This document shows, in pieces, positions 24,843-25,841 of a stretch of DNA of 44,826 bases; the first letter of the stretch is position 1; each line of letters begins with the position of its first letter. This DNA is from a virus. Taxonomy: Duplodnaviria > Heunggongvirae > Uroviricota > Caudoviricetes. A program made the position numbers and the translations under genes. The stretch lies in IMG/VR virus record IMGVR_UViG_2718218398_000008. One strand, 5' to 3'. The notes beneath the pieces are model-generated. The model made no database searches. It was not told the DNA's origin and saw nothing but the letters and a program-made list of their open reading frames with translations.

Positions 24843-25046
24843 TGTTTCGCCGCCGACAAAAGGCCGGGACGTTAAATGTCAGAAATCAGGCTCACGGGGT
24901 AATTTAACGACAAAGCACGGAGTTGATGCTCCCCGCAAGCCTGGAATAAAAAAGCCAGCATGTAGCTGGCAACAGAGGGTTAAGCAATATCAACTCAACA
25001 GCTGAAGACACCCTGGCTGGGGTAGGTTGGAAGGCTACTCACCGTT

Positions 25047-25082
25047 CAGAAACAGAAAAGCCCAAGGCTTTAAACCTCGGGC
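25047..25082 (-). terminator. candidate intrinsic terminator of the late leader (tR'-like): GC hairpin followed by T-tract on minus strand
   Basis: Inverted repeat GCCCGAGG...CCTTGGGC followed by TTTTCTGTTTCT on the minus strand, ~70-100 nt downstream of the Q-position gene. Confidence 0.5.
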
Positions 25083-25151
25083 TTGAATTTGGATTACTGC
25101 CAGTGCGTACAACATTGGCAAAATATCAGATTTACATAAAATATATGATTT

Positions 25152-25841
25152 TTAATCCAGTTTTGCAATATCTTGCTGTGAAAATATGGTCTTTTGTTTT
25201 GAACGTGTTTTCGTTAAAAGCAATAAAGCTTGGCTATCAAGCTGTAGAAAAATGTGCTTCATTGCAACCCAGCGTTCAGTAAATGTCTCAGACCAGTTTT
25301 TTGATGTCACTCCCACCAGTGATGCCAGCTCCTGGTATTCATAGGTCTTACGCCCTGCCAGCTCGTTCTTCACATCCTGTGCCGCCAGCCAGATCAACTT
25401 CTTCAAACGTTCCAGTGTTTTACCTGCAATTTTCCTGGTACCCAACAGAGTCTTAAACTCGCTCCATGCCCACTGCGTTATGGTGACCTGATGTTCCCAG
25501 CGAACACTTTCGCTGTAACTCCACAGCAACCACGCTTTCTGATGTTCTTCGAGAGACAGAACCGCGCGGCGCCATGACGAGGTTGAGAACTCAACCTGGC
25601 TGACCAGTGCAATGGATGAACCTTTTGCGTACAACTGCTTACCGGAAATCGGCGGATTATCCAGCGTAATCATCCTGCCAGTTACCTCATCCAGAATGCG
25701 CGGCTTCTTTCGTTTGTATGTACCAGTATCAAATTGTGCATGCTCCAGCCAGGCTTCAAGCTGTCCTTTCGTTGCTCCGCTCAAATCAGCGGTAGCCACA
25801 ATGAGTTGCTCGCGGACATACTGTAAATATTGGGTATTCAT
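25152..25841 (-). CDS. putative late-gene antiterminator (Q-position protein, 229 aa), unlike lambda Q
   Basis: Synteny only: between rusA/ylcG and lysis cassette, start overlaps ylcG stop; sequence not recognised as lambda-, 21- or DLP12-type Q. Confidence 0.5.
   Translation of the reverse strand: MNTQYLQYVREQLIVATADLSGATKGQLEAWLEHAQFDTGTYKRKKPRILDEVTGRMITLDNPPISGKQLYAKGSSIALVSQVEFSTSSWRRAVLSLEEHQKAWLLWSYSESVRWEHQVTITQWAWSEFKTLLGTRKIAGKTLERLKKLIWLAAQDVKNELAGRKTYEYQELASLVGVTSKNWSETFTERWVAMKHIFLQLDSQALLLLTKTRSKQKTIFSQQDIAKLD

Follow-up and report, generated by a model that had tools for sequence, protein, structure and literature searches.

A Q82-type antiterminator gene and its predicted compact late leader in a lambdoid prophage of Escherichia coli

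The 229-aa protein encoded at the Q position of the window, i.e., the entire 44,826-nt stretch of phage DNA analyzed here, is by its sequence the Q protein of phage 82, the prototype of the third classical Q family. Together with the promoter, pause element, and terminators that follow it, the gene almost certainly forms the switch to late gene expression in an E. coli lambdoid prophage of the phage 82 type. The identity of Q, the order of the surrounding genes, and the sequence elements at their published positions are direct observations. The Q82 protein and its promoter-pause-terminator leader are an already known, ordinary module of lambdoid prophages. Its discovery value is small, as Q represents the type of one of the three classical families and the associated promoter, pause site, and terminator have long served as a model system. 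Its value lies in annotation: An 82-type late switch can be assigned to the prophage, and its leader is unusually compact and free of cargo.

Three families of Q proteins are distinguished, namely Q21 (PF06530), Q-lambda (PF03589), and Q82 (PF06323) (Yin et al, PMC9388147). Against Pfam, the Q ORF of the window gives a single match to PF06323 (Phage_antiter_Q) with 312.2 bits (cut-off 25; E 2.6e-93). Residues 4–219 of Q align to positions 1–216 of the 220 positions of the profile, so that the match is full length. In PHROGs, the ORF is assigned to phrog_304, "anti-termination protein Q-like" (E 2.6e-107), and no further family is matched in Pfam, NCBIfam, or PHROG. In control Pfam searches, lambda Q falls into PF03589, QuuD of DLP12 into PF06530, and phage 82 Q into PF06323.

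An earlier note on this DNA had placed a late regulator at this site, which is borne out by the PF06323 match and by the location between ylcG and the holin gene. The note had also described the protein as none of the recognizable Q types. This holds for the lambda, 21, and DLP12 types, as the Q ORF has no Pfam match to PF03589 at E <= 0.01 and none to PF06530, the family of Q21 and DLP12 QuuD. It does not hold for the 82 type: The profile search with the Q families recovers PF06323, and the type is hence not unrecognized. Consistently, tblastn searches of the window with lambda Q and QuuD yield nothing (best E 2.5 and 0.32, respectively). Neither of the two findings that the note had named as counter-evidence is present, since no non-antiterminator family is matched and no second Q gene is detected in the window by tblastn with lambda Q, QuuD, and 82 Q. 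Likewise, no Q besides the Q82-type one is listed by RefSeq for the near-identical prophage of strain 4/1-1.

The relationship to phage 82 is close at both the protein and the DNA level. Q of the window and phage 82 Q (REGQ_BP82, CAA63332.1) are of equal length and align without gaps, with 223 of 229 residues identical (97%). The six substitutions relative to phage 82 Q are S70L, E204Q, R211K, A218T, T219I, and N224D, five of which fall into the C-terminal 26 residues. Over the 690 bases of Q, DNA identity to X92588 ([quoted passage not shown] in GenBank) is 98.4%, and the block orf151/ybcN-ninE-orf96/ybcO-rus/rusA-orf45/ylcG-Q is colinear with this entry throughout. In identical genomes, the RefSeq entry for the protein is WP_001097224.1, "bacteriophage antitermination protein Q". 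A protein database search returns 2780 relatives at E <= 1e-5, with PF06323 present in all among the matches listed. A PDB sequence search with the Q ORF gives no match even at E <= 10, and no structure of a Q82-family protein is matched by sequence in the PDB. Further, an AlphaFold2 model of Q, built from a 30-sequence alignment (74–95% identity), reaches a mean pLDDT of 52 and a pTM of 0.33, and the fold is unreadable from the model.

The late genes of the window run on the minus strand (Table 1). On this strand, Q is flanked by the nin/rusA region and the lysis cassette, as is characteristic of its family. As the earlier note had read from the sequence, its start overlaps the stop of ylcG: The ATG of Q (25841..25839) and the TGA of ylcG share 4 nt as ATGA. 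The Q-to-holin interval, previously estimated at about 310 bp, measures 309 bp (24843..25151) up to the TTG at 24842 with which the holin ORF was called, and 321 bp up to the ATG at 24830, which RefSeq takes as the start in an identical genome, where the product is a "phage holin family protein". The interval was also said to hold neither tRNA nor toxin cargo. In agreement, ARAGORN finds no tRNA in the whole window, and the gap contains no minus-strand ORF of at least 40 aa. Within the lysis cassette, the lysozyme-like ORF has no match in a Pfam search, and the Rz1-position ORF nested within Rz is named from its position alone. Beside the bor/iss gene past the cassette, a TonB-family fragment is located at 22472..22852 on the minus strand; both are typical lambdoid morons.

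Table 1. Genes and predicted signals of the late-gene switch and its surroundings, in order of late transcription.
Feature	Coordinates	Strand	Basis and remarks
ybcN/NinB-like ORF	26787..27242	minus	upstream of Q
ninE	between ybcN and ybcO	minus	upstream of Q
ybcO	26334..26663	minus	upstream of Q
rusA	25975..26337	minus	upstream of ylcG
ylcG (phage 82 orf45), 46 aa	25838..25978	minus	NCBIfam NF033498, E 1.1e-20; colinear with orf45 of X92588
Q antiterminator ORF, 229 aa, ATG start	25152..25841	minus	
Predicted late promoter pR' (82 type)	25140..25168	minus	promoter scan: TTGCAA-17-TATATT
isrJ-like short leader RNA, predicted terminated pR' transcript	25057..25136	minus	Rfam RF01393
Initial transcribed region with predicted sigma70-dependent pause element	25109..25133	minus	sequence reading against PMC5001585
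First intrinsic terminator, putative tR' equivalent	25048..25084	minus	12-bp stem 25084..25058; about +50 to +84
Second terminator-like hairpin	24945..24970	minus	GCCAGC-UACAU-GCUGGC, then UUUUUUAUU; about +164 to +189
Holin, first late gene	24525..24842	minus	PF16083, E 8e-22; phrog_785, E 5.5e-40
Lysozyme-like ORF	24062..24538	minus	RefSeq "glycoside hydrolase family 24 protein" in identical E. coli genome
Rz	23604..24065	minus	PF03245
bor/iss serum-survival lipoprotein gene	23231..23572	plus	directly past lysis cassette

The predicted late promoter overlaps the 3' end of Q. Its −35 hexamer TTGCAA (25168..25163) lies within the last Q codons, and the 17-bp spacer (25162..25146), which includes the Q stop codon TAA, leads to the −10 hexamer TATATT (25145..25140). 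From the Q end, the minus strand reads ATT GCA AAA CTG GAT TAA AAATCA TATATT TTATGT AAATCTGATATTTTGCCAATGTTGTA... As far as X92588 reaches, which is to the Q stop codon at its end, pR' is identical to phage 82, covering the −35 hexamer and the spacer up to the stop. The −35 hexamer, spacer, and −10 hexamer are also kept in phage 434, in PPompW, in the Klebsiella and Enterobacter phages, and in Gifsy-1 upstream of isrJ. A Q-binding element (QBE) is described between −35 and −10, and 82 Q is stimulated by NusA (PMC4914094). By analogy with phage 82, the spacer of the present promoter is predicted to contain such an element.

The initial transcribed region follows the layout published for the pause at 82 pR'. 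We put +1 at the first A of AAATC (25133). This AAA start is consistent with the slippage initiation cited for the 82 late promoter in the reference list of PMC5001585. At 82 pR', the −10-like element carries an extended −10 and ends at +14; insertions at +9 shift the whole pause signal, and insertions at +15 part the −10-like element from the discriminator (Bird et al, PMC5001585). The same study describes a "+15-17 GCC" sequence at the discriminator position, an AT-rich stretch from +18 to +25, U at +25, and pauses at +25/+26. In the window, TG occupies +6/+7 (25128-25127) and the −10-like TATTTT +9 to +14 (25125-25120), followed by GCC at +15 to +17 (25119-25117) and the AT-rich AATGTTGT at +18 to +25, with U at +25 (25109). 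Hence, every published positional feature of 82 pR' is matched, and the elements of a sigma70-dependent pause are in place by sequence. Since X92588 ends at the Q stop, the leader is equated with the authentic 82 pR' from these published positions and not from an alignment. A literature string search for the initial transcribed sequence of 82 pR' returned chance matches only. The pause core TGTAAATCTGATAT occurs as a single copy in the window and is kept in the relatives.

Between 24500 and 26000, the minus strand contains seven terminator-like sites, compared to 1.4 ± 1.3 in shuffled sequences. The hairpin with T-tract that the earlier note had likened to tR' is among them, and it is not the only one in the Q-to-holin interval. 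The two best of the seven sites are the first and second terminators of the leader. The first terminator (ΔG −18.4 kcal/mol, z −4.6) has the stem AAGCCCGAGGUU-UAA-AGCCUUGGGCUU, followed by the tail UUCUGUUU (also given as UUCUGUUUCU), in which the U-tract is interrupted (UUUUCUGUUU). It predicts a terminated RNA of ~80–84 nt. An intrinsic terminator thus separates the pause site from the first late gene, as is typical for the Q82 family. The second hairpin (24970..24954) has a ΔG of −11.9 kcal/mol (z −3.8) and would likewise act as a terminator. None of 200 shuffled versions reaches the folding stability of the full 291-nt leader (z −4.5). In addition, a small hairpin (25095..25122, minus strand; UUGCCA...UGGCAG, +13 to +38) is located between the pause site and the first terminator; its counterpart in relatives has a different stem (GUCG...CGAC) in the same place and is part of the consensus structure of the Rfam family isrJ.

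What is published on phage 82 allows DNA binding by Q, pausing, and antitermination to be predicted for this prophage by analogy. RNA polymerase would start constitutively from pR' at the AAA. Re-binding of sigma70 to the extended −10-like element (TG-A-TATTTT, +6 to +14) would follow, with a pause of the complex at about +25. In the absence of Q, transcription would end at the strong hairpin and U-tract at about +50 to +84, leaving a leader RNA of ~80 nt. Q itself would be made from pR through the nin region, with its translation coupled to that of ylcG. Once accumulated, Q may bind its DNA site in the promoter spacer and engage the paused complex with the help of NusA, thereby forming a terminator-resistant polymerase. 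This polymerase would pass both terminators and go on to transcribe the holin, lysozyme, and Rz genes and, subsequently, the head and tail genes.

The same arrangement recurs in related phages. Phage 82 has the same upstream genes, Q-orf45 overlap, and Q length as the window. The Q of phage 434 (CPT_434_67), annotated as "Q82-like", is 87% identical to Q of the window, and the Qs of 434, PPompW, Gifsy-1 (AntQ), and Klebsiella and Enterobacter phages belong to the same family at 60–87% identity. In all of these, the promoter and pause core are kept, with the terminator at equal distance. We aligned the Q 3' end and the following ~130 nt from 434, PPompW, KO-TP1, ST11-VIM1phi8.1, BHUENT6, CobraSix, and Gifsy-1. 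The core TTGCAAAAcTGGATTaAA..cATATATTTcATGTAAATCTGATAT is conserved, followed by the small hairpin and then by a GC-rich terminator at the same distance. While the terminator occupies the same place in the relatives, its stem sequences differ, and one stem pair is fully compensatory (GC to CG) in three of the seven sequences. The leader of the window is more compact in what follows: PPompW, BHUENT6, CobraSix, and Gifsy-1 carry tRNAs, and 434 carries membrane-protein and esterase genes, between leader and lysis genes, whereas the window has neither.

In lambda (Q, PF03589) and in phage 21 and DLP12 (Q/QuuD, PF06530), the Q proteins share the genomic position and regulatory role of Q of the window but no detectable sequence similarity with it. 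QBE, sigma-dependent pause, and terminator read-through form a logic common to the Q families (PMC9388147). The pause at +25, predicted for the window and described for the 82 type, contrasts with +16 in lambda, and the predicted leader of ~80 nt with one of 194 nt in lambda (PMC4914094). Q82 is reported to be able to load on complexes with long RNA, and the "nozzle" mechanism is therefore unproven for Q82; whether Q82 uses it was posed as an open question in 2022 (PMC9388147).

The leader of the window also resembles a known small RNA. Its match to the Rfam family isrJ (RF01393) is full length but, at 30.4 bits (E 7e-4 to 2e-3), stays under the gathering score of 37, and the central part of the match diverges. 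Beyond a chance-level snoRNA match, no other Rfam family is found in the gap. In KO-TP1, BHUENT6, and CobraSix, isrJ scores 63–73 bits and starts 16 nt past the Q stop, an offset that is the same in the window. In Gifsy-1, isrJ scores 100 bits, follows anrP, and is preceded by ATTGCAAAACTGGATTAA, which corresponds to the last codons of an 82-type Q. The isrJ matches lie at 2747..2821 in locus L007 (Gifsy-1), at 1497..1573 in L009, and at 1475..1548 in both L011 and L012. IsrJ of the Salmonella prophage Gifsy-1 and the leader of the window have the same position relative to the conserved promoter and have in common the 5' sequence UGUAAAUCUGAUAU, a two-hairpin architecture, and a terminator, but the sequences of the first hairpin and of the terminator stem differ. 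From the offset of isrJ to the Q stop in the relatives and from the Q-end sequence in Gifsy-1, we conclude at the sequence level that IsrJ corresponds to the terminated leader of a Q82-type late promoter. This equivalence was not met as a statement in the literature searched.

In Gifsy-1, the region between Q and this promoter is expanded. An isrK-orf45-anrP module has been described in this prophage (PMC4825925). In L007 (1878..2760), the Q stop is followed by an isrK/C4-like RNA, orf45, and the antirepressor gene anrP, and only then by a displaced copy of the Q 3' end with pR' (ATTGCAAAACTGGATTAA...); isrK overlaps Rfam C4 and c4-a1b1 matches. Because isrJ follows anrP and is preceded by the Q-end sequence, we conclude that the isrK-orf45-anrP module has probably been inserted between Q and its late promoter. 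It thus appears that a module resembling the c4/ant module of P1 immI has entered just upstream of the Gifsy-1 late promoter.

The resemblance to IsrJ raises the possibility that, in the lysogen, the ~80-nt pR' RNA has an additional function in trans as an IsrJ-like sRNA, which would not exclude its role as attenuated leader of the late switch. The leader of 82-type prophages would then be the E. coli counterpart of IsrJ, constitutive in lysogens and a trans regulator of host genes. We consider both the trans activity and this broader reading unlikely. The full-length isrJ match and its position, which is that of the bona fide isrJ of relatives, speak for such an activity. However, the Rfam score stays under the gathering threshold and the center of the leader diverges. 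To our knowledge, the analogous 6S leader of lambda has no established trans function. A further point in favor is that high transcription of IsrJ in lysogens and a need for it in efficient Salmonella invasion have been reported (10.1101/787010). If the broader reading is true, an RNA known from textbooks as an attenuated leader would at the same time serve as a lysogenic-conversion factor, and this in hundreds of E. coli genomes.

The other alternatives concern the protein and the state of the prophage. That the protein at the Q position belongs to an undescribed or non-antiterminator regulator family might have been suspected from its non-recognition in the earlier note and from the lack of a PDB sequence relative. 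This is ruled out, leaving next to no probability for it, by the PF06323 match far above the cut-off and by the identity to phage 82 Q, a biochemically characterized antiterminator, with no other Pfam, NCBIfam, or PHROG family matched. Many E. coli prophages are cryptic, and the module could accordingly be an inert relic in which gene and signals are intact while the prophage is defective and the switch never used. The window copy indeed contains an IS66-family element of 2.5 kb (28465..30995; HTH_Tnp_1 ORF, TnpB_IS66, and DDE_Tnp_IS66), which interrupts a nearby alpha/beta-hydrolase moron gene, so that the prophage has taken at least one hit. However, no essential phage gene is hit by the element. 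The prophage of strain 4/1-1 (next to icd) lacks it, is otherwise 99.996–100% identical to the window, and retains every ORF from int to the tail genes intact. The flanks of the element overlap by ~9 bp there, which looks like a target-site duplication. Moreover, Q, leader, and lysis genes are 99.9% identical to the isolated phage PhiR47_2, and the module thus belongs to a viable phage. An inert relic is therefore very improbable, and we retain the reading as the late-gene switch of an 82-type prophage. This switch is widespread: In 693 E. coli records, the 1.5-kb stretch 24500..26000 is matched at 99% identity or more, and 830 genomes contain no less than 80% of it; its annotation is "bacteriophage antitermination protein Q" everywhere.

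Further features of the prophage deserve mention. A TTGC-N6-TTGC motif of the lambda CII type (TTGCAATATCTTGC; 25163..25176, plus strand) is oriented antisense to Q at the 3' end of the gene and overlaps the −35 hexamer of pR'. It occurs once in the window, compared to 3.3 copies expected by chance, and its place is that of the site annotated as "paQ / CII binding site" in phage 434. At the cII position, the prophage carries a YdaT-like gene. A 4.3-kb moron gene of the inverse-autotransporter type (intimin/invasin-like; ~31310..35575, minus strand) is located between the replication gene P and the nin region and contains internal repeats of ~357 bp at 33204..34266.
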